Positions 11,228-63,802 are shown, numbered from the stretch's first letter. The stretch: DNA of 64,000 nt from an uncultured Acidobacteriota bacterium (GCA_963700145.1 OY969474.1:1568001-1632000), one strand, 5' to 3'. Translations and numbers: made by a program. Notes: generated from the sequence alone by a model not told the origin.

Positions 11228-11477
11228 CGGTACGAGACGCTGGTCCCGCGGTACGAGACGCTGGTCCCGCGGTACGAGCTGGTCCCGCGGTACCGGGCGC
11301 TTGGTACCGCGGTACGAGGCGCTCGTACCGTGGTACCAGGCGCTCGTACTGCGGTACCTGACGCTCGTACTGCGGTACCGGCCGCTCGTACCGCGGTACC
11401 AGGCGCTCGTACCGCGGTACCGGCCACTCGCACCACGGTACGCGGCGCTGGTACTGCGGTACGAGGCGCCGGTCCTG
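11228..11477. repeat. 21-bp-period palindromic tandem array A (12 units, CGGTAC-N9-GTACCG)
   Basis: Units read directly, e.g. CGGTACgagacgctgGTCCCG, CGGTACcaggcgctcGTACCG; one 18-nt and one 22-nt unit. Confidence 0.95.
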
Positions 11478-11512
11478 TGGTTCGGGATAGCCTTTCCCGT
11501 CCCGGAGAGCCT

Positions 11513-13834
11513 ATGAAGCCCGACCCCGCCCCTACGCCGAGCGCCGCCGCGCGCGACGACTTCATCCGCGAGATCGCGCGCGCCGACCTCGCCGCCGGCA
11601 AGCACGGCGGCCGCGTCGCGACGCGCTTCCCGCCGGAGCCGAACGGCTACCTCCACATCGGCCACGCCAAGTCGATCTGCCTCAACTTCGGCGTCGCCCG
11701 CGAGCTCGGCGGGACGTGCAACCTGCGGATGGACGACACCAACCCGGAGACCGAGGACCTCGAGTACGTCGAGGCGATCCAGGACGACGTCCGCTGGCTG
11801 GGGTTCGAGTGGGACGGAATGTTCTACGCCTCCGACTATTTCGAGCCTCTCTACGACGTCGCCGTGCAGCTCGTGCGCGACAGCAGGGCCTACGTCGACG
11901 AGCTGTCGGAAGACGAGATCCGCGCCTACCGCGGCACCGTCACCGAGCCGGGGCGGGAGAGCCCGTGGCGCGACCGGCCGGCGGCGGAGAGCCTGGCGCT
12001 CCTCGAGCGCATGCGGCGCGGCGAGCTGGCCGACGGCTCGTGTGTGCTGCGCGCCAAGATCGACATGGCGGCCGAGAACATGAAGATGCGGGACCCCCTC
12101 CTCTACCGCATCCGCCGCGACACCGAGCACTACCGGCGCGGCCGCGAGTGGCCTATCTACCCGCTCTACGACTTCGCGCATGGCCTTTCCGACGCCTTCG
12201 AGGGCATCACCCACTCGCTCTGCACCCTGGAGTTCGAGAACAACCGCCAGCTCTACGACTGGCTGCTCGCCGCCGCCCGCATCCCGGACCCGCCGCAGCA
12301 GATCGAGTTCGCGCGCCTGGTCCTCAACTACACCGTGCTCTCGAAGCGCAAGCTCCTCCAGCTCGTCGAGGAGGGGCTCGTCGCCGGCTGGGACGACCCG
12401 CGGATGCCGACGCTGCGCGGCCTGCGCCGCCGCGGCTACACGCCGGAGGCGATCCGCGCCTTCTGCGACGCGATCGGCGTCACCAAGGCGCAGACGGTGG
12501 TGGACGTCGCCCACCTCGAGCACGCGGTGCGCGACGACCTCAACGCCAAGGCGCCGCGCGTCCTCGCCGTGCTGCGGCCGCTGCGCGTCGTCGTCGAGAG
12601 CTGGCCGGAGGGGCAGGTCGAGACACTCGACGCGCCGTCCTTCCCGCGCGAGATCCCGCGCGACGAGTCGCGCCCGCTGCCCTTCGAGCGCGAGCTCTAC
12701 ATCGAGCGCGACGACTTCGCGGAAGCGCCGCCCAAGGGGTACAAGCGCCTCGCCCCGGGCCGGCGCGTGCGGCTCCGCCACGCTTACGTCGTCGAGTGCC
12801 GCGAGGTCGTCAAGGACGCGGCGGGCGAGGTCGTCGCGCTGCGCTGCGTCCACGACCCGGCCTCGCTCGATCCCGGCGCCGACGCCGGCAAGGTCGCGGG
12901 GACGATCCACTGGGTGCCGGCCTCGCGCGCGCTGCCGGCCGAGGTGCGGCTCTACGACCGCCTCTTCTCCGACCCCGAGCCCGACGGCGGCAAGAGCGGG
13001 CCGGACTTCCGCGCCTTCCTGAACCCGGACTCGCTGCGCGTGGTCGAGGGGGCCCTGGTCGAGCCGAGCCTCGCCGGCGCGCGGCCCGGCGACCGCTTCC
13101 AGTTCGAGCGCCACGGCTACTTCGCCGTCGATCCCGACGCGACGGCGGAGCGGCTGGTCTTCAACCGGATCGTGCCGCTGCGGGACACCTGGACGAAGCG
13201 GGCGGCGGAGGGGGAGGCGCCCGCGGCCGCCAAGGCGCCGGCCGCCTCAACGGGCGCCGACAGAGTCGAGAAGGAGATCGCCGTCGAGGATGTCGCGCCC
13301 GCGGCCCGCGACCGCTTCCTCCGCTTCCGCGACGAGCTCGGCCTCCTCCCCCACGAGGCGCGGACCGTGGCCGAGGACGAGTCGCACAGCCGCCTCTTCG
13401 AGGAGGCCGCCGCCGCCGGCGCCGCACCGCGCGCCGCCGCCGCGTGGATCGCCAACGACCTCGTCCGCGAGCTGCGCGCCCGCGACCTCACGGCGCCCCC
13501 CTTCGCCGGCGCCGCGCTGGCCGAGCTGGTTGCCCTCGTCGAGGCCGGCGAGGTGACCACCACCGCAGCCCGCGAGGTCTTCGCCGCGATGGTCGCCGGG
13601 GAGGCCGGCCCGCGGGCGATCGTCGCCGCCCGCGGCTTGGGAGCCCTCGCCGGCGAGGCAGCCCTCGCCCCCCACGTCGAGTCCGTCCTCACCGCCCACC
13701 CGGCCCAGGTCGAAGCCTACCGAGCCGGCAAGACCGCCCTCCTGAGCTTCTTCGTCGGCCAAGTCATGAAGGCGACCGGCGGCCGCGCCGACGCTGTGGA
13801 AGTGCGTGAGCTCGTTGCAAAGCGGATGGAGTGA
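11513..13834 (+). CDS. glnS: Glutamine--tRNA ligase with C-terminal YqeY/GatB-like domain
   Basis: TRFPPEPNGYLHIGHAKS, THSLCTLEF, VLSKRKL, GWDDPRMPT, FQFERHGYF; C-terminal FFVGQVMKATGGRAD YqeY motif. Confidence 0.97.
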   Translation: MKPDPAPTPSAAARDDFIREIARADLAAGKHGGRVATRFPPEPNGYLHIGHAKSICLNFGVARELGGTCNLRMDDTNPETEDLEYVEAIQDDVRWLGFEWDGMFYASDYFEPLYDVAVQLVRDSRAYVDELSEDEIRAYRGTVTEPGRESPWRDRPAAESLALLERMRRGELADGSCVLRAKIDMAAENMKMRDPLLYRIRRDTEHYRRGREWPIYPLYDFAHGLSDAFEGITHSLCTLEFENNRQLYDWLLAAARIPDPPQQIEFARLVLNYTVLSKRKLLQLVEEGLVAGWDDPRMPTLRGLRRRGYTPEAIRAFCDAIGVTKAQTVVDVAHLEHAVRDDLNAKAPRVLAVLRPLRVVVESWPEGQVETLDAPSFPREIPRDESRPLPFERELYIERDDFAEAPPKGYKRLAPGRRVRLRHAYVVECREVVKDAAGEVVALRCVHDPASLDPGADAGKVAGTIHWVPASRALPAEVRLYDRLFSDPEPDGGKSGPDFRAFLNPDSLRVVEGALVEPSLAGARPGDRFQFERHGYFAVDPDATAERLVFNRIVPLRDTWTKRAAEGEAPAAAKAPAASTGADRVEKEIAVEDVAPAARDRFLRFRDELGLLPHEARTVAEDESHSRLFEEAAAAGAAPRAAAAWIANDLVRELRARDLTAPPFAGAALAELVALVEAGEVTTTAAREVFAAMVAGEAGPRAIVAARGLGALAGEAALAPHVESVLTAHPAQVEAYRAGKTALLSFFVGQVMKATGGRADAVEVRELVAKRME

Positions 13835-14376
13835 GGCCTCGGGAAGCTTCCCGTCCTCCTCCGGAAGCTTCCCGCCCGCATCCGGAAGCTTCCCGACCGC
13901 CTCCGGAGGCTTCCCTGCCGCCTCCGGAGGCTTCCCGGCCGCCTCCGGAAGCTTCCCGGCCACCTCCGGAAGCTTCCCGGCCGCCTCCGGAAGCTTCCCG
14001 GCCACCTCCGGAAGCTTCCCGACCGCCTCCGGAAGCTTCCCGCCCGCCTCCGGAAGCTTCCCGCCCGCCTCCGGAAGCTTCCCGTCCGCCTCCGGAAGCT
14101 TCCCGGCCGCCTCCGGAAGCTTCCCGTCCGCCTCCGGAAGCTTCCCGGCCGCCTCCGGAAGCTTCCCGGCCGCCCCCGCAAGCTTCCCGACCGCCCCCGG
14201 AGGCTTCCCGGCCACCTCCGGAGGCTTCCCGGTCACCTCCGGAAGCCTCCCGGCCGCCTCCGGAAGCCTCCCGGCCGCCTCCGGAAGCTTCCCGGCCGCT
14301 TCCGGAAGCTTCCCGTCCACGTCCGGAGCTTCCCCGCCGCCTCCGGAAGCTTCCCTTTCGCCTCGGGAAGCTTCCT
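13835..14376. repeat. 21-bp-period palindromic tandem array B (26 units, CTCCGGAAGCTTCCCGGCCGC consensus)
   Basis: GGAAGCTTCC-type core recurs every 21 bp from 13842 to 14366 (one 20-nt unit at 14325); starts immediately after the glnS stop. Confidence 0.97.
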
Positions 14377-14492
14377 CCGGACCTGCGGTCGTCTCTTCAG
14401 GGCTCGGGAGCGCAACGCAGCCGCACGCGAAGGTTAACGAGGAAGGGGCCGAGATAAACACACATCAAGCCGTGCGACAATGCCGGTGCGCT

Positions 14493-14831
14493 ATGAGGAA
14501 AAAGGCTGATCACAAGAGGGTCGACAGCGATCGGGACACGATGCGTCCGGAGTACGACTTCTCTGGTGCTGCCCGCGGAGCAACGTCAGCTAGGTACGCC
14601 GAAGGCACGACTGTGGCGGTGGTCGCATCAGAGGTTCTCGACGCCTTCCCCGCCGAAGAACAGAAGAAGGACGACCTCCGCCCGGAGTACCACCTCGACT
14701 ACGCCCAGGCGAAACCGAACCGGTTTGCGAGTGAGTTGAGCCGGGATTCCGCTACCGTCGTTCTGCAGCCCGGTGCGGCTGCCACTACCCGGCGAAGGTC
14801 TAGACGCCCGCGCCCGCCCGAGAATGGCTAG
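14493..14831 (+). CDS. Small antitoxin-like protein with two DxxRPEY motifs
   Basis: DTMRPEYDFS and DDLRPEYHLDY...KPNRFA resemble N-termini of small BrnA/CopG-type antitoxins; no toxin partner recognised. Confidence 0.5.
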   Translation: MRKKADHKRVDSDRDTMRPEYDFSGAARGATSARYAEGTTVAVVASEVLDAFPAEEQKKDDLRPEYHLDYAQAKPNRFASELSRDSATVVLQPGAAATTRRRSRRPRPPENG

Positions 14832-14875
14832 GAGGTCGGTTCACCGTCGTGCACCGGTTCGTCCCGCCGCTCGCA

Positions 14876-17800
14876 CTAACTCGCCTCTGGCAGCCCAAGC
14901 TCGGGCAGGGACTCGACGATCCGGACTGTTTCAAGACTCACAGTGACGACCTGTCCGATCAGGCGGAGGATGTACTTCGGGTCGTCCTCTCGATTCGGAT
15001 CGTTCACGATGCCACTGCGTTTGTCAGTCGTGACACGGTATTGATCTACGATCCACCCCAACGCGCTCCTATGTCCCAAGCGATAGCGCTCGACATCGCG
15101 CGGGATGCCCTGCAGCGTCAGTGCCTGGTTGTAGATGAGCTCCCCAGCCTCCCGGTCGTATTTCATCCGCTCCACCCTGAAGTCGAGTTTCGCCTCCGTT
15201 TTCCAATGCTCGACGAGCGGAAACTCCGGCTGCCGCTCGTAGTCAACATGCAGTTCCGCAAGGTGGCTACCTGCCTCCGCAAATGGCCGGAACTCTGAAG
15301 CAAGTGGGATGCGCGGCAGTTCACGCCGCAGATTTGCGATAAAGCGCTCCCGGTACATCGGTTGGTGAAGAACGGCGTAGACATAGTGAAAGATGTCCCA
15401 CTTCGTTATAGCTGGGTCGTCATAGCGCTCTCGGAACACTGACAGCGACCAACTAGTCAAGTTCTCACGGCGTTTATTAGAGCCATCGAGGTCATAGACG
15501 TAGAAGGGGAAAACTTGGGAACCTCCTTGCGGCATGATATCCACGATCTGCCTAACGGCGAGGGCGAAGAACGGCCAGTCCTGTCCCACCTTGACCCAGA
15601 TGGCACGGTTCTCCTGCTCGGATGCTTCATTCGGAAAGATCTTGTTGAATAGGCGCGGCTCCTCGTTTAGAAGCGGGTCATGGTAGAGACACTTCGTCGT
15701 AAACGGTCTGTACTTCGCCCATCGAAGTGCTGCCGGACGGAAAGAGGTGGAACGGCCTCTCTGTAAGTCTAGCTTAAGGTCACGACTCCACGCGATCCTG
15801 CGCCCGTCATCGTCCACCCAGTCGTCGACCTCCTTCTTCTGTCGCTCAGCGATCGGCCACCGCGCCACGTGATCATTGTAAGTGTCGATCATTCGCTGGA
15901 TGTTTTCGCTCAGAGTTGCCCAATCAAAATTGTACGCCCAGGAGTCTCTATTTGTAGTCACTCCGAGACTGTAGAGGCGGAAGAGAACTTTGCCTGGAAC
16001 TCGGTTCGCGTCCACCTCCTTACTCCCCAATGGAAGGAACGACACGAACTCGGACCGAAGGTCACGTGTAAGCCAATTATGCCGCGAATCTGGTTCAAGG
16101 CGCTGCCACTCAATCGCAGAAACACGGCCCTTCTCCTCGAGGAATCGGCCCTTTTCTTCCCTGCGCCAGTCCTCTCCTGTTCGCGAATAGAAGATTTCAG
16201 CCCGTCCGCCGCGTTTGCTTCGCCTGACAAAAAGGTTGACGCTCACTCCGACCCTAATGCCGAACACATTGTGCGTCGTGCCCGAGAGCTTCGGGTTCTT
16301 GCGCACATTGCCACCGAGGTCAAGCACGTAGATGCGGTCAAATTCCTCTTCGAGGTAGCTGCGCATTCCGTCAGAGGCAATACCGTCAAGGAAGCCACTA
16401 TTGCAAACAAGCGCCACGATCCCCTTCTCGCCGATGCGGTCGGTGGCCCATCGGATTGCTCTTATGTAGGGATCGCGAAGCTTGGAAGTAGATGAGGCCT
16501 TCGAGGCTCTCGCGTAGGTCTCCCTTACCCGCTTGTCCATCTTCTTGTACTTACGGTTCTTGTTGTTGTCATTCTCGTTAACCTGCCCGACGTTGTACGG
16601 CGGGTTGCCGATCACTACCCTGATTGGAGCGCGCCTTTGACGCTCCACGCGCGCAGTGTTAGCCTCCGAGAACATCTGGTGCTGCTGGCTATCCTCCGCC
16701 AGCTCAAAAGTATCAACGAGGCAAATCCCCTCGAACGGCTCATAGTCGTCGGTGAGCTCATAGTAGGTGTGCTCGATGTTCATGCTCGCGATGTAGTACG
16801 GCAAGAGCATGACCTCGTTTGCGTGCAGCTCACGAGCGTACTTCTCAGGCAGAGAGCTCTTCTTGGTCTCCGCGATCTGCCGCAGCACCCGGACGATGAA
16901 GTTCCCGGTGCCAACAAATGGGTCGAGGACTTGGACATTCTCGGCCGCGAGGCTCGTGTCGAATTCGCTTGTCAGTAGCTCGTCTACGCTCCGCACCATG
17001 AAGTCGACGATGGGCTGTGGCGTATAGACGATGCCGTGCGTGTCGGCGACCTTCACCGAGAAGCCTTGGAAGAACTGTTCGTAGACAGTGTTGAGGAACG
17101 CCTGTTTCTGCGAGAAGTCGTCGATACCGGCGGCAGTCGCTTCAATGGCAGTGTAGAAGGGATCGAGACTCTTCAGGAACTCGTGGCGCGAGAAGCTCTG
17201 AGAGGTAAGTGCGTCGATCACCGTCTCGATCTCGGCCGCTATTGCATTGCGGCGCGTGAAGTCCGGGACTTGAAACACGTGACGGAAGATGCGCTCGGTA
17301 AGTAGGTGCTGGATCAGCATCTCCTCGACGGCGGCCTTCGAGATGTTCGGATTGAGGGAGGCCCGGCTCAGCTCCATGAAGGCATCGAACGCGGCGCGGA
17401 AGCGCCGGTTGCGCTGTTCTTCTCGGCGGATCAAGCTGAGCACGCTCTGAGCCAGCTCGGGGACACGGTCCTTGAACTCGCTTACCGCTTCTTCCCAGCG
17501 CTCGAGCTGCGGCTCCTCGTGCTCGAAGAAAAGACGGAGCGCGTCGACGAGGCGCGTGGGTTCGGCGACGGAGAAGTCGAGGGCTTCCGACCCCTGGTAA
17601 AGGAGGATGCGTCCGGGCTGCCAGAAGAGAGTGTTGTTGCGAGGATAGCCCTGACCGAACTTTTCTCGCGCCTGTTTCGCGAGATCAGCGGCCGCCCCCT
17701 TTGCCTCGTACCAACCTCGCGCCAGGCGGAACTCGTCAACCACAAGACCGTCGGGGCGGAGGTTGCGAGATCCGCGGCGCACCGTCGGCTCACGAAGCAA

Positions 17801-17965
17801 CGACCAGCCGGCGTAGCGACGGGCACATCGATCGAGCAGGGTCTCGAACGCGTGCCGCACACCCAGCTCGTGGTCGATCTGAAGCTGCGCACCTTGCTCC
17901 AAGGCGGCGTAGTACTCCCGGACCGCCTTGTCGGTTGCCTTGAGCGCCAGTGATGAGCGAGGCAC
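14876..17965 (-). CDS. Single-chain restriction-modification enzyme (PD-(D/E)xK nuclease + N6-adenine MTase + type ISP-like specificity domain, no helicase)
   Basis: RPDG...WYEAK nuclease motif; GIVYTPQPIVDFMV, VLDPFVGTGNF (motif I), IGNPPY (motif IV); YRPF, DIFHYVYAVLH..YRERF..NL..ELPRIP C-terminal motifs; visibly lower GC; start uncertain. Confidence 0.88.
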   Translation of the reverse strand: MPRSSLALKATDKAVREYYAALEQGAQLQIDHELGVRHAFETLLDRCARRYAGWSLLREPTVRRGSRNLRPDGLVVDEFRLARGWYEAKGAAADLAKQAREKFGQGYPRNNTLFWQPGRILLYQGSEALDFSVAEPTRLVDALRLFFEHEEPQLERWEEAVSEFKDRVPELAQSVLSLIRREEQRNRRFRAAFDAFMELSRASLNPNISKAAVEEMLIQHLLTERIFRHVFQVPDFTRRNAIAAEIETVIDALTSQSFSRHEFLKSLDPFYTAIEATAAGIDDFSQKQAFLNTVYEQFFQGFSVKVADTHGIVYTPQPIVDFMVRSVDELLTSEFDTSLAAENVQVLDPFVGTGNFIVRVLRQIAETKKSSLPEKYARELHANEVMLLPYYIASMNIEHTYYELTDDYEPFEGICLVDTFELAEDSQQHQMFSEANTARVERQRRAPIRVVIGNPPYNVGQVNENDNNKNRKYKKMDKRVRETYARASKASSTSKLRDPYIRAIRWATDRIGEKGIVALVCNSGFLDGIASDGMRSYLEEEFDRIYVLDLGGNVRKNPKLSGTTHNVFGIRVGVSVNLFVRRSKRGGRAEIFYSRTGEDWRREEKGRFLEEKGRVSAIEWQRLEPDSRHNWLTRDLRSEFVSFLPLGSKEVDANRVPGKVLFRLYSLGVTTNRDSWAYNFDWATLSENIQRMIDTYNDHVARWPIAERQKKEVDDWVDDDGRRIAWSRDLKLDLQRGRSTSFRPAALRWAKYRPFTTKCLYHDPLLNEEPRLFNKIFPNEASEQENRAIWVKVGQDWPFFALAVRQIVDIMPQGGSQVFPFYVYDLDGSNKRRENLTSWSLSVFRERYDDPAITKWDIFHYVYAVLHQPMYRERFIANLRRELPRIPLASEFRPFAEAGSHLAELHVDYERQPEFPLVEHWKTEAKLDFRVERMKYDREAGELIYNQALTLQGIPRDVERYRLGHRSALGWIVDQYRVTTDKRSGIVNDPNREDDPKYILRLIGQVVTVSLETVRIVESLPELGLPEAS

Positions 17966-18018
17966 GAGAGAAGGGTAACGAACGCTGCTGCGGCCGACAA
18001 GCGCGGCCCGCAATCCGG

Positions 18019-18315
18019 CTAGCTTGCTCGATTAGCCCAGTAGCGCGGCCGCCGCCTCTGGTGGGCGATCGCCAGGATCATGATCCTCGCGGGGAGGACT
18101 TTGTAGACGACGTAGTAGGGGAAGCGAACGATCGCGAGCTGGCGGATCTCGCGTAGGGCTATGGCACCAAGACGCGGGTACTGCCTGATCCGCGCCACGG
18201 CCGTCTCGACGTCATCGATGAAGGCCTCGCCGAGACCCAGAACTCTTTCCTCGTAGAAATCGGCCGCCTCGAACAGCTCCCGCCGCGCCAGCGCGTGCCA
18301 GGTGGCTTGGCTCAC
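18019..18315 (-). CDS. RelE/ParE family toxin
   Basis: ARRELFEAADFYE...GLGEAF...RFPYYVVY...ILAIAHQRRRPRYW; start overlaps antitoxin stop. Confidence 0.9.
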   Translation of the reverse strand: MSQATWHALARRELFEAADFYEERVLGLGEAFIDDVETAVARIRQYPRLGAIALREIRQLAIVRFPYYVVYKVLPARIMILAIAHQRRRPRYWANRAS

Positions 18316-18542
18316 TTGAGCCTGGAGCGTGCTTCCCGGAAGACCTCTTCGGAAGGGATCGCCTCGACCTCGCCGCGCTCGAGCTGGAGCGCCCTGGCTT
18401 CGGCCTCCTCGGCCCAAACCCGCGCTACCTCCGCGTCTTCGGTCTCCTCGAGGCTGAGCAGCAACACCCGGAGCAGACGCGCACGGTCCTCGCCGGCCAG
18501 CTGGAGCACCTCGGTTTCGAGCTCTTCAACGGTCTTTGCCAT
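18312..18542 (-). CDS. Addiction module antitoxin
   Basis: L.GEDRARL...L.SL...WAEEAEAR...GEVEAIPSEEVFREARSRL; directly upstream of the ParE-like toxin. Confidence 0.9.
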   Translation of the reverse strand: MAKTVEELETEVLQLAGEDRARLLRVLLLSLEETEDAEVARVWAEEAEARALQLERGEVEAIPSEEVFREARSRLK

Positions 18543-18584
18543 CGCAGTTCCCTGCCTCACCAGCATAGCGCACCCCTACTCACC

Positions 18585-19973
<1,389 letters not shown>

Positions 19974-19985
19974 TGTTGCTGCTGC

Positions 19986-32070: not shown

Positions 32071-33162
32071 TCAGGGGAGGAAAGGCGCCGCCAGCGTCGC
32101 GACCTCGTTCTCGGCGAAGCGGGCGCGTGAGAGGTTGGTGAGCACCGCCACCGCCACCCGCGCGTCGGGGTAGACGAGGAGGAAGGCGCGCCCCCCTTCG
32201 ATCGTCCCCCCGTGGTGGAGGATGCGGCGGCCGGCGGCGTCGGCGCCGATCCGCCAGGCGATCCCCACACCGGTCTCCTTGCCGTCGGCGGTCGCTTGCG
32301 AGGTGAAGAGGAGCTTGCGAGTCTCGGGGCGCAGGAAGCCGTCGGCGAGATGGGCCGAGGCGAAGCGCACGAGGTCCGGCGCCGTCGAGAGCAGGCCGCC
32401 CGAGGGCCACTTGTAGCTGCTGTCGATCGGTTGCTCGTTCTGGAAGCCGCCCCCCTCGGCCGCGGCGTACGGCCGGGCGCGGCGCTCGACGATTCGCTCG
32501 ACGTCGTCGGCTTGAGTGCCGGCGAGCCCGAGCGGCGCGAGGACCCCCTCCTCGAGCGCGGCGAGGAACTTCCGCCCGGCGGCGGCCTCGGCGACGGCGC
32601 CGAGCAGGTTGTAGCCGTAGCTCGAGTAGAGGTAAGCCGAGCCCGGCGCGTGGGCCAACGGGTCGGCGCGGAAGATCGCGAGCCCTTCGCCGAGGCTCGC
32701 GTAGCGCTTGACCGGGAGCAGGAAGTCGGCCGGCAGGTAGTGGCGGATCCCGGCGAGGTGGCCGGCGAGCTGCCGCGCGGTGATCGGCTGCCCCTTGTCG
32801 GGAAACTCGGGCAGGTAGCGTTGGATGGGGGCGTCGAGGTCGAGCTTCCCCGCCTCGACGAGCCGGGCGACCAGGGCGGCGGTGAAGAGCTTCGAGACGC
32901 TGCCGATGCGGAAGCGGGTGTCCGGCGTCGCCGCCACCTTCTGCTCGAGGTCGGCCCAGCCGAACCCCTCCGCCCAGACCAGGGTGCCGTCCACCGCCAC
33001 GGCGGCGGCGAGGCCGGGGGATCCCACCTGCTCGCGCAACGCTGCGGCGGCCGCGTGCGCGGCGGCGGCGGCCGGAGGCGCGCTCGCCGCCGGGGCCTGC
33101 GCCGCCGCGGCGCCCGTGAGGAGCGCGAGGAGCAGGGCTGCCGCGAGGCGTCGGATGGTCAT
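32071..33162 (-). CDS. Serine hydrolase (beta-lactamase class C/AmpC-like family)
   Basis: Signal peptide; FRIGSVSK (SxxK), YLYSSYGY, HHGG. Confidence 0.92.
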   Translation of the reverse strand: MTIRRLAAALLLALLTGAAAAQAPAASAPPAAAAAHAAAAALREQVGSPGLAAAVAVDGTLVWAEGFGWADLEQKVAATPDTRFRIGSVSKLFTAALVARLVEAGKLDLDAPIQRYLPEFPDKGQPITARQLAGHLAGIRHYLPADFLLPVKRYASLGEGLAIFRADPLAHAPGSAYLYSSYGYNLLGAVAEAAAGRKFLAALEEGVLAPLGLAGTQADDVERIVERRARPYAAAEGGGFQNEQPIDSSYKWPSGGLLSTAPDLVRFASAHLADGFLRPETRKLLFTSQATADGKETGVGIAWRIGADAAGRRILHHGGTIEGGRAFLLVYPDARVAVAVLTNLSRARFAENEVATLAAPFLP

Positions 33163-33716
33163 GTGTCGGGGTCCCACTCCGGCTCGGGGTCGATCCCCAG
33201 GCCGTCGGAGAGGCGATTGTAGTAGTTGAAGAAGCCGACCACCTGGGCGATCGTGAGGATCGCGGCGTCGTCGAAGCCGGCGGCGCGCAGCGCCTCGACG
33301 TCGGCGGCGGTGACCTCGCGCGGCGTCAGGGTGAGCTTGCGCGCATAGGCGAGCATGGCGCGGTCGGCGGGTGTGAGATCTCCTTCACCCTCTTCGGCCG
33401 CCGCCGCCAACCGCTCCCCCGCTTCGCCCGCGACCTCGGCCCGGAGGTCGTCCGCGTGCGCGCGGGTTCAGTAGTGGCAGTCGTTGGCGCGCGAGACGGC
33501 GACGGCGATCATCTCGCGCTGGGCGCGGCTGAGCGGGCCGCCGGGGGCGAGCATCAACCGCCGGTAGAGCTCGATCGAGGCCTCCAGCACCTCCGGCTGC
33601 AGGCCCTGCAGGCGCACCACGTTGAAGACCTTGCCGGCGCGCGCCAGCGCCTCGTCGTAGAGACGGCGCAGCGTCCCTTGCGCCTCGTCGGGGGGGATGG
33701 TGCGGATCCAGGCCAC
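33159..33716 (-). CDS. AhpD/CMD-family peroxidase-related selenoprotein (Sec at TGA 33468-33470, CxxU motif)
   Basis: 82-aa ORF ends REMIAVAVSRANDCHY-TGA; same frame continues TRAHADDLR...YARKLT.TP..V...DVEALRAAGFDD...VGFFNYYNR; together a complete 185-aa AhpD-like protein. Confidence 0.85.
33426..33467 (-). promoter_or_regulatory. Putative bacterial SECIS element
   Basis: After UGA: ACCCGCGCGCACGCGGA-CGACCUC-CGGGCC-GAGGUCG-CGGGC; 7-bp stem, loop starts 24 nt after UGA, G at second loop position. Confidence 0.65.
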
Positions 33717-39517: not shown

Positions 39518-41470
<1,953 letters not shown>

Positions 41471-41476
41471 CCTCGC

Positions 41477-41505: not shown

Positions 41506-41514
41506 ACGCGCGCG

Positions 41515-41717
41515 CGAATGGCGCAGGTAGACGCGCGAATAGGACCGGTACAGCGGCGAATGGGACCGGTACGGCGACGATGGGACAGGTGCGGCGGCGA
41601 TTGGGCTGGGTACGGCGGGGAATGGGCCAAGTGCGCGGGTGAATGGGCTGGTAGGGCGGCGAATGGGCCAGGTATGCGGCGTAACCGCTCCATTCGTCCG
41701 CGGACCTGTCCCATTCG
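41515..41717. repeat. 21-bp-period array C (8 forward CGAATGGGACAGGT-type units, then 2 inverted units)
   Basis: CGAATG-type heads at 41515, 41536, 41557, 41578, 41598, 41619, 41640, 41660; inverted CCATTCG at 41690 and 41711. Confidence 0.85.
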
Positions 41718-56727: not shown

Positions 56728-56762
56728 GTCATCCTGAGCGAAGCGAAGGATCTGGGCGGGGG
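56728..56762 (+). repeat. REP-like palindrome, copy 1
   Basis: GTCATCCTGAGCGAAGCGAAGGATCTGGGCGGGGG. Confidence 0.8.
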
Positions 56763-56767
56763 AAGCT

Positions 56768-57553
56768 GTGGCTGACATCACCCTATTGAAGCTCGGCGGT
56801 AGCCTGATCACGGAGAAGGAGCGGGCTCGGACTGCGCGAGGGGAGGTAATCCGGCGGCTGGCGGGGGAGATCGTCGCGGCCGGGGCGGGGGGCTTGGTGC
56901 TCGGGCATGGGAGTGGGTCGTTCGGGCATGTGGCGGCGGCGCGGGCGGGCTTGGGGAGCGGGCCGGTGGCGCGGGAAAACCTGGACGGCGTGGCGGACAC
57001 GCAAGCGGAGGCGGCGGAGCTGCATCGGATGGTCGTCGTGGCGTTGCGGGAAGCGGGAGCGCGACCGTTTTCGTTCGTGCCGGGGAGCTTCTTGGTGGGA
57101 AGGAGCGGGCATGAGCACGGAGTGTTGCCGCCTGCGCTGCCGGTGGCGCTGCGCTCGGGCTTCCTCCCCGTGGTCTACGGCGACGTGGTTCTGGACACCG
57201 AGTGGGGCGCCGCGATCGTCTCGACGGAGGTCGTCTTCATCTTCCTCGCCCGCGAGCTGTTGGCCGCCGGCTTCACTGTCCGCCGCGCGATCTGGCTCGG
57301 CGAAACGGCCGGCCTCCTCGACTCCGCCGGTCGTACCATCCCTGAAATTCATCCCGACGATTGGGACACCGCCGTCAGGGCGCTCAGGTCCCCACGAGGC
57401 ACCGACGTCACCGGCGGCATGGGCCTCCGTCTCGTCGCCGCCGCCGCCCTGTCGGATGACGGCATCCCTTCGCTCCTCGCCGACGGCACCGTCCCCGGGC
57501 TCCTGGAGCGCGCCCTTCGCGGCGAGATGGTGCCGGGCACGCTGATAGGCTGA
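56768..57553 (+). CDS. Isopentenyl phosphate kinase (amino acid kinase superfamily)
   Basis: LKLGGSLIT.K, GHGSGSFGH (IPK signature His), PVVYGDVV, IVSTE, DVTGGM; located in mevalonate operon. Confidence 0.88.
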   Translation: MADITLLKLGGSLITEKERARTARGEVIRRLAGEIVAAGAGGLVLGHGSGSFGHVAAARAGLGSGPVARENLDGVADTQAEAAELHRMVVVALREAGARPFSFVPGSFLVGRSGHEHGVLPPALPVALRSGFLPVVYGDVVLDTEWGAAIVSTEVVFIFLARELLAAGFTVRRAIWLGETAGLLDSAGRTIPEIHPDDWDTAVRALRSPRGTDVTGGMGLRLVAAAALSDDGIPSLLADGTVPGLLERALRGEMVPGTLIG

Positions 57554-57561
57554 CTGCGGCG

Positions 57562-58512
57562 ATGGCCGACCTCGACGCGCACCTGCTCAAGACGAGCCGC
57601 ACGTTTGCGCTCTGCATCCCGCGGCTGGGGCAGCCGACGCGGCGGGAGGTGACGCTCGCCTATCTCCTGCTGCGGGTCGCCGACACGTTCGAGGACGCGG
57701 CCGCCTGGCCGCGGGCGCGGCGGATCGAGGCGCTGGAGCGGTTCGGCGCGCTCCTCGCGCGGCGCGCGCCCGAGGAGACGGCGGCGCAGGCTGCGGTCTG
57801 GGCGGAGGAGGTCCCCTGCGCCTGGCTGGCGTACCGGGAGCTGCTGGCCGACCTGCCCGAGGTGCTCGACGCCTTCTTCGGCCTGGCGCCGCCGGCGGTG
57901 GAGCTCATCCGCGCCCACATGCTACGCACGATCCGCGGCATGGCGGGGTACGTGGCGCGCACCGACGGCGCCGGCGAGCTGCGGCTGGCCGACCTCGCCG
58001 ACCTGCGCGGCTACTGCTACGTGGTGGCGGGGATCGTCGGCGAGCTGCTGACCGAGCTCTACCTGCTCGAGCGGCCGGAGCTCGCGGCGGTGGCGCCGCG
58101 GCTGCGCGAGCGGGCGCCGTTCTTCGGCGAGGGGCTGCAGCTCGTCAACATCCTCAAGGACTCGGCGTCCGACGCGGTCGAGGGGCGCTGCTATCTGCCG
58201 GCGGCGGTGGACCGCGCCGAGGCGCTGGCGCTGGCGCGCGAGGACCTGCGAGCGGCGGCCGAGTACGTGCTGGCGCTCCAGGCCGCCGGCGCCGAGCGCG
58301 GCCTGGTGGCCTTCAACGCCCTGCCGGCCGAGCTGGCGCTCGCCACGCTCGACCGCGTCGAGGCCGCCGGCCCCGGCGCCAAGCTCACCCGCCGCGAGGT
58401 CTTCGACATCGTCGACCGCGTCAACCAGGCCCTCGAGCGCGATGCCCCGGCCGTCTCCCCCGCCGTCTGGAACCCGGCGCAAGCCGCAACCGCCCCTCGC
58501 GCCGCGCACTAA
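57562..58512 (+). CDS. Squalene/phytoene synthase family protein
   Basis: LLKTSRTFAL.I, AYLLLRVADTFED, YCYVVAGIVGELLTEL, GLQLVNILKD...D..EGRCYLP. Confidence 0.9.
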   Translation: MADLDAHLLKTSRTFALCIPRLGQPTRREVTLAYLLLRVADTFEDAAAWPRARRIEALERFGALLARRAPEETAAQAAVWAEEVPCAWLAYRELLADLPEVLDAFFGLAPPAVELIRAHMLRTIRGMAGYVARTDGAGELRLADLADLRGYCYVVAGIVGELLTELYLLERPELAAVAPRLRERAPFFGEGLQLVNILKDSASDAVEGRCYLPAAVDRAEALALAREDLRAAAEYVLALQAAGAERGLVAFNALPAELALATLDRVEAAGPGAKLTRREVFDIVDRVNQALERDAPAVSPAVWNPAQAATAPRAAH

Positions 58513-58521
58513 CCTTAGCCC

Positions 58522-58556
58522 GTCATCCCGAGCGCAGCGAGGGATCTGGGCGGGGG
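58522..58556 (+). repeat. REP-like palindrome, copy 2
   Basis: GTCATCCCGAGCGCAGCGAGGGATCTGGGCGGGGG; 32/35 identical to copy 1. Confidence 0.8.
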
Positions 58557-58598
58557 CGCCGTCATGCCCGTCACTATAATCCGCCGCCGGAGGTGCCG

Positions 58599-60495
58599 AT
58601 GGCCCGCGTGCTCGATCTACCGCTCGTCGCTCCCCTGCTCTTCTCCTTCGCCGCCCTCCTCTGCGCCTGCGCCGGCGCGCCCGCGCCGGCGCCCTCCGGC
58701 TCCTCCACGCCGGCCGCCGCGCCCGCCGTCCAGGACCCTCACTCCTACGCCAAGCCCCAGGAGGTCGCCGTCGAGCACCTCGGGCTCGACCTCACGGTCG
58801 ACTTCCCGCGCAAGCAGCTCGCCGGGCGCGCCAGCCTCCGCATTCGCAACCGCACCGGCGCCACCCGGCTCCACCTCGACACCCGCGACCTCGACGTCCG
58901 CCGCATCCTCCTCGACGGCGGCACCGAGGCGCGCTTCACCCTCGGCGACCCCAAGCCCTTCCTCGGCCGCGAGCTGACCGTCGAGATCGCGCCCGACACG
59001 CGCGTCGTCCACATCGACTACGCCACCAGCGCCGACGCGGCCGCCCTGCAGTGGCTGGAGCCGCGGCAGACCTCGGGCGAGCACCCGTTCCTCTTCACCC
59101 AGTCGCAGGCGATCCTCGCCCGCACCTGGGTGCCGCTCCAGGACACGCCGAGCGTGCGCATGACCTACGAGGCGACCGTGCGCGTGCCGCCCGAGCTGAT
59201 GGCGGTGATGAGCGCCGAGAACCCGACGGCGAAGTCCGCCGACGGCGTCTACCGCTTCCGCATGCCGCAGGCCATCCCCTCCTACCTCCTGGCGCTCGCC
59301 GTCGGCGACCTCGCCTTCCGGCCGCTCGGCGACCGCGCCGGCGTCTACGCCGAGCCGGCGGTCGTCGAGCGCGCCGCCTGGGAGCTGGCCGACACCCCGA
59401 AGATGATCGCCGCCGCCGAGAAGCTCTACGGCCCCTACCGCTGGGGACGCTACGACGTGCTGGTGCTGCCGCCGAGCTTCCCCTTCGGCGGCATGGAGAA
59501 CCCGCGCCTCACCTTCGCCACGCCGACGATCCTGGCCGGCGACCGGTCGCTCGTGTCCCTCGTGGCGCACGAGCTGGCCCACTCATGGTCGGGGAACCTG
59601 GTGACCAACGCCACCTGGAACGACTTCTGGCTCAACGAGGGGTTCACCGTCTACTTCGAGAACCGCATCATGGAAGCGCTCTACGGCCGCTCGTACTCCG
59701 AGATGCTCGCGGCCCTCGGGCGTGGCGACCTCCTCGAGACGATCGAGGAGCTGGGCGCGGACAGCCCGGACACGCGGCTCAAGCTCGAACTCACCGGCCG
59801 CGACCCGGACGACGGGGTCACCGACGTCGCCTACGAGAAGGGGTATTTCCTGCTGCGGCGGATCGAGGAGGTCGTAGGGCGGAAGCCCTTCGACAAGTTC
59901 GTCAGCTCCTACTTCCAGCGCCACGCCTTCCGCTCGATGGACACCGAGACCTTCCTCGCCCTCCTCGACCGCGAGCTCCTCGCCAAGCACCCGGAGCTAA
60001 AGGCCGAGGTACGCCAGTGGGTCTACGAGCCGGGCCTCCCGGCGACCGCGCCGCAGCCCAAGTCCGACGCCTTCGCCAAGGTCGAGGCGCAAGCGCAGGC
60101 GTTCGCGGCCGGCACCCCGGCGGCCGACGCTCGCGACGCAGGGCTGGTCCACCCACGAGTGGCTCCACTTCCTCCGCACCCTCCCCGACCCGCTTCCCGC
60201 CGAGCGCATGGCCGACCTCGACCAGACCTTCAAGCTCTCCGACAGCGGCAACTCCGAGGTCCTCGCCGCCTGGCTGGAGAAAGTCATCGCCAGCAGCTAC
60301 GCCCCCGCCTACCCCGCCCTCGAGCGCTTCCTCACCGGCATGGGCCGGCGGAAGTTCCTCCAGCCGCTCTACACAGCGTTGGCGAAGACCCCCGCCGGCG
60401 CCGAACTGGCGCTCCATATCTACGAGAAGGCGAGGCCGGGGTACCACACGGTGTCGCGGCAGACGATTGACAAGATTCTGGACTGGCGGGGGTGA
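58599..60495 (+). CDS. M1 aminopeptidase (leukotriene A4 hydrolase-like lipoprotein), one frameshift near 60125
   Basis: TATAAT at 58575; lipobox-like LCAC; DPHSYA, SFPFGGMENP, HELAHSWSGN..WLNEG, AYEKG; C-terminal GRRKFL.PLY...YH in next frame. Confidence 0.92.
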
Positions 60496-60608
60496 GGGTC
60501 GCGATCTGAACGCTTCGCACGGGAACACCGACCGCGATATCTTGCAAGCGATTGGCCTTGCAGTCGTCAACTACTCGCACGTGGAAGAGGCCCTTCCGTG
60601 ACGGCGAC

Positions 60609-61493
60609 TTACACAAATTGTCGAACCTCTGCCTCCAGTAGATCCTTTGTCATGAGTTGGCAGCTCACCGGAACCACTCGCTCGCGAATTCTCTGGAGAG
60701 TCCGGAACATTGTACCATCAGTCGTGAACGCTGAGCAGTATGGTAGCAAGCTGATGTGGTGAAGTCACCTATGTCTGAGCCCCTGAGCTTTGGCCGGTTG
60801 GCCCTGTCGAACGCTACGTAGGAATACCAAAAACACAGGGAGCTGAGGCGAAACCGAAGTCAAGAGGGGACGAAGGCCCGCTCGAGCGCGCTGACCAACG
60901 TCCGTTAGGATCGCGTCAAGGTCTCTCCAGTAGGCGTGACGAAGATCAAGAGAAAACAAGAAGAGCTCCTTGGTCTCTTCTAGCTCGGTGAACTTACCAG
61001 CCTTGTCCTGCTTGAGATATCCATGGCTACAGGCATTCTCAATGATGCTCGTCACGTCCGCGGGCCAGCTCTTCTTGGCTTCCTCGTAGTCGAGGCTCCA
61101 AGTGTGGATGTCGAGTCCCTGCCTCAAGAAAAGGTCGTCCCTCCGCAATAGCCCAAGCAGAGCTGCCTCTCGCAACTCGGCGGAGAGGTCGAACAAGTCC
61201 AGCTCAATCGGGAGGGCTTGCAGTTGGTTCAAATGAGCAGCGACTTCCATCATCCAGACCTTCCGCGGGTTAACGATGACACAAGGAACGCGAGCCAGGA
61301 AGCGCGCTGCTGCGGCACCTCTCTCCTTTTCCCCTGCTCTCTGCCAGCCCGGGTTGTAGAGTTCGACCATCGACAAGGACGTAAGTAGGACTGTGAAGCC
61401 ATTGGACCTCACGAAGGCCGTGAGCCGGGCATCAGCTTCCGGATCGGAGAGAAGCGGGAATACCCAATTGTCAAGAAAGATGTAGCTACGCAT
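60609..61493 (-). CDS. Low-GC hypothetical protein, possibly PIN-like; two compensating frameshifts near the 3' end
   Basis: N-terminal YIFLDNWV; C-terminal D.GDFHHISLLPYCSAFTTD reached by frame changes; total span is 3n. Confidence 0.5.
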
Positions 61494-61510
61494 ATCTTAC
61501 TCATAACACC

Positions 61511-61573
61511 GACTGACGACCTAGCTAACCCAGCGCGCGCCCTTGTGCGTCCGTGTTCAGCGCATTGTCGGGC
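61511..61573 (-). mobile_element. Integron attC-like recombination site
   Basis: Minus strand GCCCGAC-AATGC-GCTGAAC...GTTAGC-TAGGTC-GTCAGTC: R''/L''/L'/R' layout with extrahelical G; lies between two co-oriented low-GC ORFs. Confidence 0.6.
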
Positions 61574-61582
61574 AAGTATGCG

Positions 61583-62434
61583 TTATTGCAAGACCTGATT
61601 CCTTGTTACAGCCTTGATCACGACGTCCCGTGATTCACCGGGAAGGACTTTCATTACCTCAACCTCGGCGAAACTCGGCTTGCCAGTGCGTCCGTCTACG
61701 TGCGCTTCGATTACGTACCCCAGCGGGCTGTAAGGTAGCTCTACTTCAGGCTCTGCCTCGATGGCTGTGGTTGCGACCCCTAGGTAAAACAGCGGTCGCG
61801 CTGTAAACCATGTATCGGGCAAAATGGCGAACACAGAATAGCCGATCCTGTCCGTTCGTTGCGGCTTACCTTCTCCCGTCTGCAGCTTGATCTTGAGCTT
61901 TACATCGGTCTGGATGTCCTGCTCGAACTTCGGCGGCGGCGAACTGCGCGGCGGCGCAGGCAGGGCATAGACAGCCACGGCAATGGCTGTGCATACCGCA
62001 AGGTTCGCCAGTGCCTCCTTCATATCCAGAGCTTTTCCCAGCGCAAGCATTATTGTGCTTGCGCTAAGCAGCACCGCCAGAAACCCAGCGCCCTGCCGAT
62101 AGGTGATCTGCGGAATGTTAACCACCGCGGCCGCGACCACCGGCGCTCCAAAGGCCGCGAGCGTACGCGTCATAGCGCCAGCGCGTGTGAACAGGTTTCC
62201 TTCTACGCTCTTGGTCTTGAACAGTGCGAGGTTGCCCATGGCCCATGTCAGGCCGATCATACCCAGGGAAAGCAGCGTCAGCTCCGGCCAACTGCCCAGA
62301 CCCAGCCAGACCAGATAAATTTCCGCCGCCACCAGGCCAAGCATCACTAGGCTGATAATCTTCTCGAGCAGAGAGACCGCGTGCGTGCTTGTGCTGGTTG
62401 GCCCTACACCCTGTGGGTTGAATAGGACACTCAT
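61583..62434 (-). CDS. Low-GC multi-pass membrane protein of unknown function
   Basis: About five hydrophobic segments then soluble C-terminal domain; GGGAG RBS before MSVLFN; atypical codon usage. Confidence 0.65.
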   Translation of the reverse strand: MSVLFNPQGVGPTSTSTHAVSLLEKIISLVMLGLVAAEIYLVWLGLGSWPELTLLSLGMIGLTWAMGNLALFKTKSVEGNLFTRAGAMTRTLAAFGAPVVAAAVVNIPQITYRQGAGFLAVLLSASTIMLALGKALDMKEALANLAVCTAIAVAVYALPAPPRSSPPPKFEQDIQTDVKLKIKLQTGEGKPQRTDRIGYSVFAILPDTWFTARPLFYLGVATTAIEAEPEVELPYSPLGYVIEAHVDGRTGKPSFAEVEVMKVLPGESRDVVIKAVTRNQVLQ

Positions 62435-62929
62435 GAATGCTCCCTGCCTTTGACTACCTGCGGCACCAGGCCAACCTCTGTTTCTACGACTCGCCGAGGC
62501 GCGGTTATGGTCGGCATGGCCCACGGTCGGCTAATGTCTATGGTCCGTGGCTCCGACTGCGCCGATGCTCCATGCGTAGGCCTCTCAATCAGTTGGCCAG
62601 TATAACAAGAGGAGACACGAGCCCTTGCGTGGGGGAGCGCCGCCTAAGCTCCGGTGGCGGAAGCGGCGGCTCAGGCTGCCTGAAGCTCGCGCCATCAGGA
62701 GGCGATGGTGATTAGCGGCGCGCGGGCGGCAACTCGTGTGCGGCGCGCTTGCCTGGGGGCGCGGGCGACGCTACACTCGGGGGCGTAAGTAGGGCAGCAG
62801 GATCGATCAAGAACGCGTGAAGCCGGCCGCACGCCGGGGCATCGAACGCGCGGGCCGAGAACGTGAAGCGGACGCGACAGAGTTGGCACCTCTGCCGCGC
62901 CCTGGACCACACACGGAGGACTAAGCTCC

Positions 62930-63286
62930 ATGCGCAGTCTTGGGACGAAGTCTAGCAACGCCGCCGGTCCCGCCTCTGACACCCCGTATCTCCCCTTCCC
63001 CATCGTGGAGGACCTGAAGCTCTCCGAGCTCCTCGAGAGCCCGGCGGGGCGCGCCGTCGCCGGCGTCTTGGAGCGGCGGGCGCGGCGGGAAGAAAAGAGC
63101 GAGCGGGCGCGGCGGGCGCGTGCGGCGGGGCGCCGGTCGGGGACGGTTTGCGGTCGCTGGACCGGGAGCGGGCGGGTGCCGGACCTGCGGCTGTCGGGAA
63201 GGTGGCTACGGGCGGCGGGTTTCGACCTCGGGCAGGCGTACGAGGTGGAGGTGCGCTCCGGGAGGCTCGTAATCAGGGCGGTTTGA
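62930..63286 (+). CDS. SymE-family (AbrB-fold) type I toxin-like protein
   Basis: GGAGGA RBS; C-terminal VPDLRLSGRWLRAAGFDLGQAYEVEVRSGRLVI matches the SymE pattern. Confidence 0.78.
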   Translation: MRSLGTKSSNAAGPASDTPYLPFPIVEDLKLSELLESPAGRAVAGVLERRARREEKSERARRARAAGRRSGTVCGRWTGSGRVPDLRLSGRWLRAAGFDLGQAYEVEVRSGRLVIRAV

Positions 63287-63297
63287 GCGCCCCGCCA

Positions 63298-63360
63298 GCG
63301 GCGGCGACCACCACGGAGGCGGCGGCGACCACCGCGGACTCGGCGGCAGTCTTCGCGGTG
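63298..63360. repeat. Short degenerate 21-bp-period repeat E (3 units)
   Basis: GCGGCGGCGACCACCACGGAG / GCGGCGGCGACCACCGCGGAC / TCGGCGGCAGTCTTCGCGGTG. Confidence 0.55.
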
Positions 63361-63529
63361 GTGAGGGTGAGGGTCACGGCGCCGCCGGCGATCTGGAGGG
63401 CGCTGATGTGCCATTCCGGCAGAGAACGACTCAAGGCTTGGCGACTCCTAGGGTTCTGGGCACGACAGGTTCTCCTTTCGTTCGTTGGGGATGGAGCGTG
63501 CGACGCTCCGCGACGCCCGCCGAGCGGCG

Positions 63530-63802
63530 CGAAATGGCCTCCGGGAGGCGCGGAACTCCCTGCGGCGGCTTCGGAACCCTTTCCCGGAGCGTGGGAATGG
63601 GTTGCGCGGGCCGGGGAATGGGTTGCGCGGGCCGGGGAATAGGTTGCGGAGCGTCGGGAATCCATTCCGAGCGGCTCGGAACAGGTTCCGCAGCGCGCGC
63701 AACCCATTCCCGGCGTCGCGCAACTGGTTCCCGGCGCTGCGCAAGAGGTTCCGCAGCGTGCGCAGGAGGTTCCGAGGTCCCGGGAGGACATTGCGAGGCT
63801 CC
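63530..63802. repeat. 21-bp-period palindromic array D (about 13 units, SGSAA-N4-TTSCS + 7 nt)
   Basis: Unit heads at 63551, 63572, 63593 ... 63782 with exact 21-bp spacing, e.g. CGGAAcaggTTCCG, GGGAAtgggTTGCG, CGCAAcccaTTCCC. Confidence 0.9.

Follow-up and report, generated by a model that had tools for sequence, protein, structure and literature searches.

Plasmid centromeres are rows of about 10-12 units, the layout of sopC being 12 x 43 bp, and the iterons of theta plasmids are direct repeats spaced about two helical turns apart. In the accessible portions of two accounts, the type II parC/ParR centromeres of R1 and pSK41 and the sopC/SopB centromere of F are tandem repeats located upstream of the operon encoding their binding protein; within sopC short inverted repeats are embedded in longer iterons, and centromere sites may lie at one locus or be scattered (PMC5016525, PMC2241845). 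REP/BIME elements and REPtrons, as far as the available part of their description goes, are short palindromic intergenic repeats with several families per genome, both gene-linked and dispersed (PMC3733652). Dispersed non-coding satellite families of 37-69-nt units have been reported as rare, from two species, Leptospira interrogans and Methanocella conradii, among 261 reference genomes, and the accessible part of that survey mentions for them neither a common period nor a core/spacer anatomy nor a linked gene family (PMC6749651). Here we analyse a stretch of 64,000 bp (the window) from an uncultured Acidobacteriota bacterium (GCA_963700145.1 OY969474.1:1568001-1632000), part of a closed genome, G000, of 5,455,767 bp and 71.5% G+C. 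Judged by the source names of its close protein matches, it belongs to the Thermoanaerobaculia. Four intergenic arrays of 21-bp units in this window, A to D, are best explained as part of a system of helically phased DNA arrays that is restricted to one lineage. Strong arrays, about 23 per Mb on a common ruler of two helical turns, are carried by one family-level lineage of soil Thermoanaerobaculia and are tied to fam1, a highly diversified and entirely uncharacterised gene family.

By analogy, the closest functional likeness of the arrays would be to plasmid centromeres (parC, sopC) and to iterons, yet they are not centromeres of this kind and are probably not iterons. The parC/ParR arrangement, repeats directly upstream of the operon for the binding protein, recurs in all 16 home arrays, as we call the arrays that precede fam1 genes, but not in A, B or C. 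ParR proteins are ribbon-helix-helix proteins and SopB has the ParB fold, whereas fam1 is modelled as an all-helical hairpin, and no NTPase of the ParA, ParM or TubZ type was found in the cassette neighbourhoods scanned with Pfam, NCBIfam and PHROG. Unlike plasmid centromeres, the arrays number more than 100 on one chromosome, comprise at least 23 core families and lie mostly far from the cassettes that contain fam1. Iterons too are direct repeats beside the gene of their binding protein; unlike iterons, the arrays often have palindromic cores and are dispersed in housekeeping intergenic regions, and no Rep-type initiator was found among the array neighbours scanned with Pfam.

What the system shares with REP elements and their RAYT genes is a separate dispersed repeat family for every gene copy. 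REPs, however, are imperfect palindromes or hairpins of 20-40 bp, tagged GTAG or CGTC and found singly, paired or clustered, whereas the arrays consist of 20-21-bp units with 10-12-bp cores, strict phasing and drifting spacers. On reading, rather than counting, the family consensus units we see no consistent GTAG or CGTC tag, and a search for the Y1 (IS200/IS605-type) RAYT transposase, PF01797, gave 0 matches in the closed G000 genome and was positive in 6 of 14 control genomes. CRISPR loci have repeats of 23-55 bp, unique spacers of similar length and cas genes; here the whole unit measures 21 bp. With the satellites of Leptospira and Methanocella the arrays share the property of being non-coding tandem-repeat families transposed around one genome. 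According to the part of the 261-genome survey available to us, just 18 bacteria exceed 4 satellites per Mb (PMC6749651); G000 has 23 strong arrays per Mb. A full-text literature search, supplements excluded, found no paper on 21-bp phased intergenic arrays in Acidobacteriota or Thermoanaerobaculia. What is new here is the genome-wide ruler, the array families, the fam1 cassette and their joint distribution.

A shared period of two helical turns

Tandem Repeats Finder (TRF), run on the window, places array A at 11226-11469 (period 21, 11.7 copies, 81% matches), array B at 13836-14375 (period 21, 25.8 copies, 90% matches), array C at 41514-41681 (period 21, 8.1 copies, 72% matches) and array D at 63593-63648 (2.7 copies, 97% matches), with a second stretch of D at 63662-63774 (period 21/42, 4.5 copies, 76-78% matches). 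By sequence, C continues after 41681, to about 41717, in 2-3 inverted units, and the whole of D extends over 63530-63802 with two unit types. The original prediction, which had claimed four intergenic 21-bp arrays in these 64 kb, is thus confirmed in their places and their location between genes. Its claim that their consensuses are unrelated holds among A, B, C and D themselves but not beyond them, as each array has relatives elsewhere in the genome.

Genome-wide, TRF detects about 1510 repeat clusters, of which 402-442 have period 21, 182-190 period 18 and 121-126 period 24, the ranges depending on how rows are merged. When only clusters with at least five copies and a period of at least 10 are considered, the count is 66 at 21 bp, 13 at 20 and 8 at 42, no other period exceeding 6. 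Likewise, a TRF-independent autocorrelation scan (at least 72% self-identity over 126 bp, lags 6-69) picks out lags 21 (48 regions), 20 (11), 42 (54), 63 (37), 40 (9) and 60 (8), with at most 2 regions at each remaining lag. The genome therefore has both the sharp lag-21 peak and the TRF excess at 21 that were to be expected if the period in the window was no accident. The 66 clusters and the autocorrelation peaks agree with the earlier argument that random slippage would not give independent loci the same period, and this period of two helical turns is indeed common to many unrelated sequences.

We define as strong arrays those with a score of at least 70, a length of at least 80 bp and a period of 20/21/22/40-43/63/84, excluding arrays within an open frame that shows codon bias both before and after the array. 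There are 125 in 5.46 Mb, about 23 per Mb, distributed evenly over the chromosome; 121 do not overlap genes predicted by a codon-bias gene finder written for this analysis. Arrays of 20, 21 and 42 bp together occupy 0.74% of the genome. Their length is narrowly distributed, with a median of 225 bp and an interquartile range of 195-254 bp (93 of the 125 arrays, those with at least four copies). At 70% unit identity the strong arrays form 23 families of 2-9 members and 15 singletons.

Printed in rows of 21 bases, an array resolves into a near-invariant core and a drifting spacer, with the phase held almost without insertions or deletions. A typical array comprises some 10-12 units. These measure 21 bp, more rarely 20 bp, or alternate in a 42-bp period; each unit contains a core of about 10-12 bp and a variable part of 9-11 bp. 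Averaged over 52 arrays, conservation is 0.90 in the best 10 columns and 0.74 elsewhere, and the G+C content of the core is 0.60 as compared to 0.715 for the genome. Conservation differs by just 0.09 among the three codon positions, the constraint lying in one block. An inverted repeat within the 10 best-conserved columns is present in 11 of the 52 arrays, against 1.8 +/- 1.3 after shuffling (maximum 8 in 1000 shuffles). Dyad symmetry, which had been ascribed to all of A-D, is thus enriched but not universal, array C having no clear palindrome in its core. Core 10-mers are nearly limited to arrays, which hold 27 of 27 genomic copies of GGATACATCC, 18 of 18 of ATGTTTCCTC and 78 of 85 of CGGAAGCTTC; hence the cores are unlike ordinary operators, which would be found as single sites too. 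The 9-11 variable bases derive from each other by divergence, with no unique inserts among them. In the orthologous GGAAGCTTCC home arrays of G000 and its congener G004, whose flanks are 94.6-97.7% identical, the cores are nearly unchanged and many spacers differ, as judged by eye without a tally. The period, the anatomy of core and spacer and the non-coding location are all direct observations.

Avoidance of restriction sites was considered as an origin of the cores and rejected for want of a general pattern; AAGCTT alone is concentrated in arrays, which contain 41% of its genomic copies. Period-21 repeats of two to three copies are also enriched within coding regions (220 clusters, compared with 114 of period 18 and 84 of period 24). 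Among public sequencing runs no RNA run matched the words sampled from the genome, and the best DNA run contained 0.23 of them.

The fam1 gene family and its cassette

When the 238 distinct proteins that flank the 125 arrays were compared all-against-all, a paralogous family with 14 members was conspicuous. Searching the six-frame open reading frames (ORFs) of G000 with its profile brings this family, fam1, to 16 copies. Upstream of each of the 16 genes, within about 400 bp, is an array of 20/21/42 bp, a linkage of gene and array that is observed directly. The 16 home arrays are spread over different core families, including those of B, C and D. In three other genera an array lies within about 0.9 kb of 14-16 of 22 fam1 loci. 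The fam1 proteins are 123-141 aa long and belong to no Pfam family; their predicted structure is a helical hairpin with a 60-residue helix (predicted local distance difference test score, pLDDT, 87.5), followed by a disordered Arg/Lys-rich tail and then by a Pro/Ala-rich tail. Such a predicted structure suits an oligomerising, DNA-contacting adaptor. Foldseek finds nothing at E <= 0.001 with this model, and a wide VIA-align search returns generic helical hairpins alone, with Z at most 7.2. A profile search of 1.84 billion representatives yields 1396 fam1 clusters at 50% identity, nearly all of whose representatives are about 105-190 aa long and match end to end. On a 31-tip fam1 tree the period label (20/21/22) changes 6 times, against 8.9 times when shuffled (P = 0.014); because kin share period labels, this modest clustering is weak evidence.

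The family has a narrow taxonomic range. Within a sample of 151 genomes of the class, fam1 is present in 4 of 4 genomes from the taxonomic family of the window, f1, and in none of the 147 genomes from other families. Four further f1 genomes have 16-48 copies each, and G034, from another family, has none. Overall, 8 of 8 tested f1 genomes contain fam1, in 7-48 copies, and 0 of 148 tested outside f1 do. Arrays follow the same split in eight genomes, counted by TRF (score at least 70, period 20/21/42/63) in samples of 200-400 kb. In 400 kb each, G000 (16 fam1 copies) has 13 arrays, G012 (26 copies) has 11 and G006 (7 copies) has 8, while 200 kb of G010 (48 copies) contain 5. Among genomes with 0 fam1 copies, G031 has in 400 kb 2 short rows of two copies and none with more, and G032, G034 and G027 have 0 arrays in 200 kb each. 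This joint taxonomic distribution is directly observed.

Direct comparison of close relatives shows that arrays are gained and lost. Array A is kept in G004 as about 10 units, with the cores retained and the spacers changed. In G003 17 bp stand in its place, and G002 has about 2 degenerate units there; no target-site duplication and no terminal structure are seen at the junction. Metagenome contigs of related organisms bridge the site of A with 52-69 other letters, in 3 of 4 runs. The insertion that contains array B is missing from G004 and G003, where the two flanking genes are about 20 bp apart, and array C stands at the same locus in G004 with 72% identity. As A and C are found at the same loci in the independent G004 assembly, they are not assembly artefacts. 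Pairing of gene and array can be stable, since a home array of GGAAGCTTCC precedes the fam1 orthologue in G002, G003 and G004.

At several loci fam1 is part of a module with the order TPR protein, divergent XRE repressor, 255-aa protein, Pterin_4a-like (PCD/DCoH-like) protein of 72-135 aa, array, fam1 and further proteins of 137 aa (H), 315 aa (G), 247 aa (D) and 204 aa (E). Between modules the 255-aa protein, H, D and E are 82-95% identical, as compared to 51-79% for fam1 and 56-82% for the PCD-like protein. The same contrast is evident in the DNA of modules m3387 and m3889, which is 90-98% identical from -2000 to -550 of the fam1 start, falls to 60-66% in the PCD-like gene, 32-41% in the array and 45-73% in fam1, and returns to 96-100% in most 100-bp windows from +443 onward. 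Given that the drop in identity is confined to the PCD-like gene, the array and fam1, these three behave as one exchangeable, diversified unit, which we refer to as the cassette. Both boundaries of the cassette are observed directly: on the left, the conserved start of the PCD-like gene, and on the right, just past the fam1 stop codon, a segment of some 75 bp that does not vary and contains a hairpin with a perfect 13-bp stem, found in 5 of 5 modules (loci L027, L028, L029, L030 and L031). This segment could be a terminator or a recombination site. In six cassettes the home array, of about 12 units, spans the distance from the stop codon of the upstream gene to about 40 bp before the fam1 start, and in 5 of the 6 it adjoins the conserved end of the PCD-like gene. 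Remnants of cassette genes beside satellite arrays, the name we use for members of a core family that lie away from fam1, are limited to three cases (G000 3138415, G000 4166479 and array D of the window), so that satellites are not simply decayed cassettes.

Other proteins of the module offer few further leads. Pfam recognises nothing in the cassette and module proteins except Pterin_4a, HTH_3 and a weak TPR match, PHROGs the XRE repressor alone, and NCBIfam gives no useful match; PADLOC has no match to the cassette genes, and a search of PDB by sequence has none to the 255-aa protein, G, D or E. The predicted structure of G combines a helical toroid and a beta domain, for which Foldseek has no match at E <= 0.001. 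A promoter and terminator scan of one home cassette gave 0 sites. The XRE repressor was considered as the reader of the cores and rejected. The gene is near-identical in m3387 and m3889, where the XRE gene and the intergenic region between it and the 255-aa protein gene (-2000 to -1300) have 92-98% DNA identity, and no array cores occur in that intergenic region; modules that share their XRE but differ in their arrays cannot have it as the reader. A second arrangement of gene and array lacks a nearby fam1; in it, an array of 21/42 bp directly follows an XRE-type gene of about 145 aa (G000 33009-33443, 1364606-1365040, 1751644-1752084 and 5221729-5222160). Near module m3106, a segment of 54-60% G+C (L028:1713-5332, G000 3099713-3103332) encodes two proteins, a trypsin-like-domain protein of 596 aa and a DUF6119 protein of 535 aa, that are possible cargo of a defence type. 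At the end of m3387 a DDE transposase gene (DUF772 + DDE_Tnp_1, L027:11122-12501) is inserted, and the G and D genes of this module are broken.

Proposed docking platforms and competing explanations

What, then, would such arrays be for? The reading that we favour, with moderate confidence, is that they are platforms, phased with the helix, on which the cassette proteins dock, and that extra copies of them are dispersed. That unrelated cores share a ruler of 20-22 bp suggests that double-stranded DNA is recognised on one face of the helix, as do the block-wise conservation, the A+T-enriched and often dyad-symmetric cores and the narrow range of lengths. That the cassette proteins are the partners is suggested by the linkage to fam1, by the variable three-part cassette and by the joint distribution. 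The arrays would act in cis, with all cores facing the same side of the double helix, and the cores would be bound cooperatively by proteins of the PCD/DCoH-like gene-array-fam1 cassette. We infer that fam1, the PCD-like protein or both bind the cores and that binding is cooperative along one helical face. Each fam1 copy retains its home array immediately upstream of its own gene, and satellite arrays of the same core family, among them A, B and C in the window, stand naked in ordinary intergenic DNA. Our guess is that bound arrays nucleate a protein-DNA filament that regulates the cassette itself, and it is likewise a guess that the filament marks, bridges or silences neighbouring, often foreign, DNA. 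Among the roles put forward in the original prediction, the evidence most favours platforms for the phased binding of a polymerising protein, with fam1, whose 16 genes all have an upstream array, as the candidate for what is still a putative binding. If the arrays are docking platforms, they constitute a natural set of many orthogonal pairs of protein and DNA array, and a direct way to study how the chromosome is organised or policed in an uncultured lineage of high G+C.

A bolder version of the docking reading, which we regard as possible but speculative, is that of a chromosomal "address and reader" system. Diversified coiled-coil fam1 readers, each with a phased-array "barcode", would polymerise on every array of their own type, marking, bridging or silencing regions such as new low-G+C islands. 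On this supposition hundreds to thousands of fam1 readers would exist, and cassettes would be swapped between conserved backbones. This would amount to a lineage-specific bacterial chromatin or self-recognition, unrelated to ParB, H-NS, Lsr2 or Rep.

Several findings weigh against docking by cassette proteins. No recognised DNA-binding fold for fam1 emerges from Pfam, Foldseek or VIA-align. The identity of fam1 proteins does not correlate with the identity of their home-array units (Mantel r = -0.01, p = 0.52), and quite different cores are found beside fam1 copies that are 76% identical. Among the fam1 loci of relatives, 6 of 22 have no nearby array, and the position of the array relative to fam1 is upstream in G012 and mostly downstream in G006. 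A PCD-like neighbour is present at about half of the fam1 loci only. Several array families lack a fam1 home in G000; F11, F16 and F23 adjoin XRE genes instead. The joint distribution of fam1 and arrays is based on 8 sampled, related genomes and on our own codon-bias gene calls. Three further points also fit selfish DNA, namely the gain and loss of arrays between congeners, the orientation of the genes around them (37 convergent, 31 divergent and 53 tandem intergenic regions) and their low-G+C neighbourhood, which is found for 39% of arrays and 16.5% of control intergenic regions (odds ratio 3.3).

These three points lead to the explanation that we take most seriously besides docking, although on balance we doubt it: the arrays may be selfish, non-autonomous, REPtron-like repeats, families of which are copied to new intergenic sites by cassette-linked machinery with no gain for the host. 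Their cores would then be conserved because the propagating factor recognises them. Presence and absence between congeners (A missing in G003, B in G004 and G003) and the contigs that join across A are in accordance with such mobility, as are the occurrence of arrays in all types of intergenic region, with convergent ones in excess (37 of 121 arrays, compared with 461 among 3232 intergenic regions), and the enrichment near low-G+C islands. More than 100 satellite arrays lack any remnant of a cassette gene, and one gene copy per dispersed repeat family parallels the RAYT genes flanked by REPs, as the accessible part of their description has it (PMC3733652). Yet the search for a Y1/RAYT transposase was negative in the closed genome, the cassette genes contain no transposase or recombinase domain, and the junction at A has neither of the marks of insertion looked for there. 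Mobility alone, moreover, leaves the strict two-turn period of unrelated cores and the narrow range of array lengths unexplained. The selfish reading overlaps the docking reading rather than excluding it, and both may be partly true. If the arrays are selfish, they represent a new mode of repeat propagation without a known transposase.

It is improbable that the arrays act as RNA, transcribed alone or as fam1 leaders and forming rows of small hairpins that are processed or bound by protein. Many cores can form stems of 4-8 bp with loops of 2-4 nt, home arrays sit between two co-directional genes, and a conserved hairpin follows the fam1 stop codon. Nevertheless, a constant period of 20-22 bp over unrelated cores has no RNA rationale, several cores are loopless palindromes or, as in C and family F13, not palindromic, satellites occur in every orientation and also between convergent genes, and the sole Rfam match in the window is a TPP riboswitch. 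Even less probable is a dedicated enzyme that writes units of fixed step, by CRISPR-like acquisition or by repeated duplication of fixed length. The fixed period at independent loci would suit it, and a conserved core with a variable spacer superficially resembles repeat and spacer; the spacers, however, are only 9-11 bp, are diverged copies of each other rather than unique, and the same cores recur at dispersed loci. Searches of the cassette genes gave no nuclease, integrase or reverse-transcriptase domain, and no genome-wide cas search was made. This suggestion of the original prediction thus finds no support. Hardly credible at all are heptad-repeat peptides or products of chance and assembly. 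Twenty-one base pairs equal 7 codons and frames stay open in a high-G+C genome, but 13 arrays with at least five copies have period 20, conservation is block-wise with almost no codon-position effect, and nearly all strong arrays lie outside the codon-bias gene calls. A period of 20-22 bp fits the geometry of B-DNA, not codons, and the heptad idea is dropped; against chance and assembly stands the recurrence of arrays in independent assemblies.

Arrays A to D and their surroundings

Array A consists of about 12 units with a strand-symmetric core, GGTACC..CGTAC, and belongs to family F5 (families at 70% unit identity). It lies between divergent genes for an arginine decarboxylase and a Glx-tRNA synthetase-like protein. 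On reading, 15 of the 21 bases of its unit are identical to those in the home array of the fam1 gene at G000 3387763, and G002, a congener, has A-like arrays immediately before fam1 genes.

Array B, with the unit core CGGAAGCTTCCG, begins 1 bp past the stop codon of the synthetase-like gene. With up to one mismatch, its core GGAAGCTTCC has 29 matches in the window, compared with 2.44 +/- 1.62 after shuffling (0 of 100 shuffles reached 29), and 25 of the 29 fall within array B, almost all in steps of 21 bp. Its core family, F4 (6 arrays), includes the home array of the fam1 gene at G000 215624. Array B forms the left edge of a low-G+C insertion specific to G000, at 13835-18586 (4.75 kb), in which Pfam identifies, both on the minus strand, the gene for a Type ISP restriction-modification enzyme of 955 aa (14876-17743) and a ParE toxin/antitoxin pair (18019-18542).

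About 8 forward units of the form GCGAATGGG..GGTACGGCG, followed by the inverted units, make up array C, which is located between a TPP-riboswitch/thiC gene on the minus strand and a gene for a peptidase S46 on the plus strand. Its family, F2 (8 arrays), is that of the fam1 home array at G000 4272044. The TPP riboswitch (RF00059, 68.1 bits, 41368-41476, minus strand) precedes thiC, with array C just upstream of it, and Rfam has no other match in the window.

Array D differs from the others in its flanks. Its units, of family F7, are forward GGGAATGGGTTGCGCG and then inverted GGAAC-NN-GTT(C/G)C, the same two types that make up the fam1 home arrays at G000 3106290. On one side, when read against intact cassettes, is the 3' end of a PCD-like (p72) gene at 63854-63920 on the minus strand, whose upstream extent is uncertain; as in intact cassettes, it ends ..LELAAALEKVA-stop directly beside the array. 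On the opposite side, read against module m3106, is a truncated fam1, with its ribosome-binding site, GTG start and first 10 codons, at 63431-63475 (minus strand). Judged from these flanking sequences, array D is the array of a decayed cassette copy. An intact fam1 gene is absent from the window, according to the profile search of the six-frame ORFs of G000.

The fifth, degenerate array that had been proposed alongside A-D turns out to be of another kind. TRF gives 2.4 copies at 63298-63347, and this repeat lies in the 3' part of a degenerate minus-strand ORF with a PCD-like match, which extends over 63273-63953. The part of this ORF at 63273-63440 (minus strand, tblastn match 63372-63440) is, after the p72 fragment beside array D, the second degenerate PCD-like fragment here, and the repeat falls in its 3' part. 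A stretch of low G+C (about 60%) at 60500-63450 adjoins the cassette of array D and contains three minus-strand ORFs of 239-313 aa without a Pfam family, as well as a SymE-toxin-like ORF at 62930-63286 on the plus strand.

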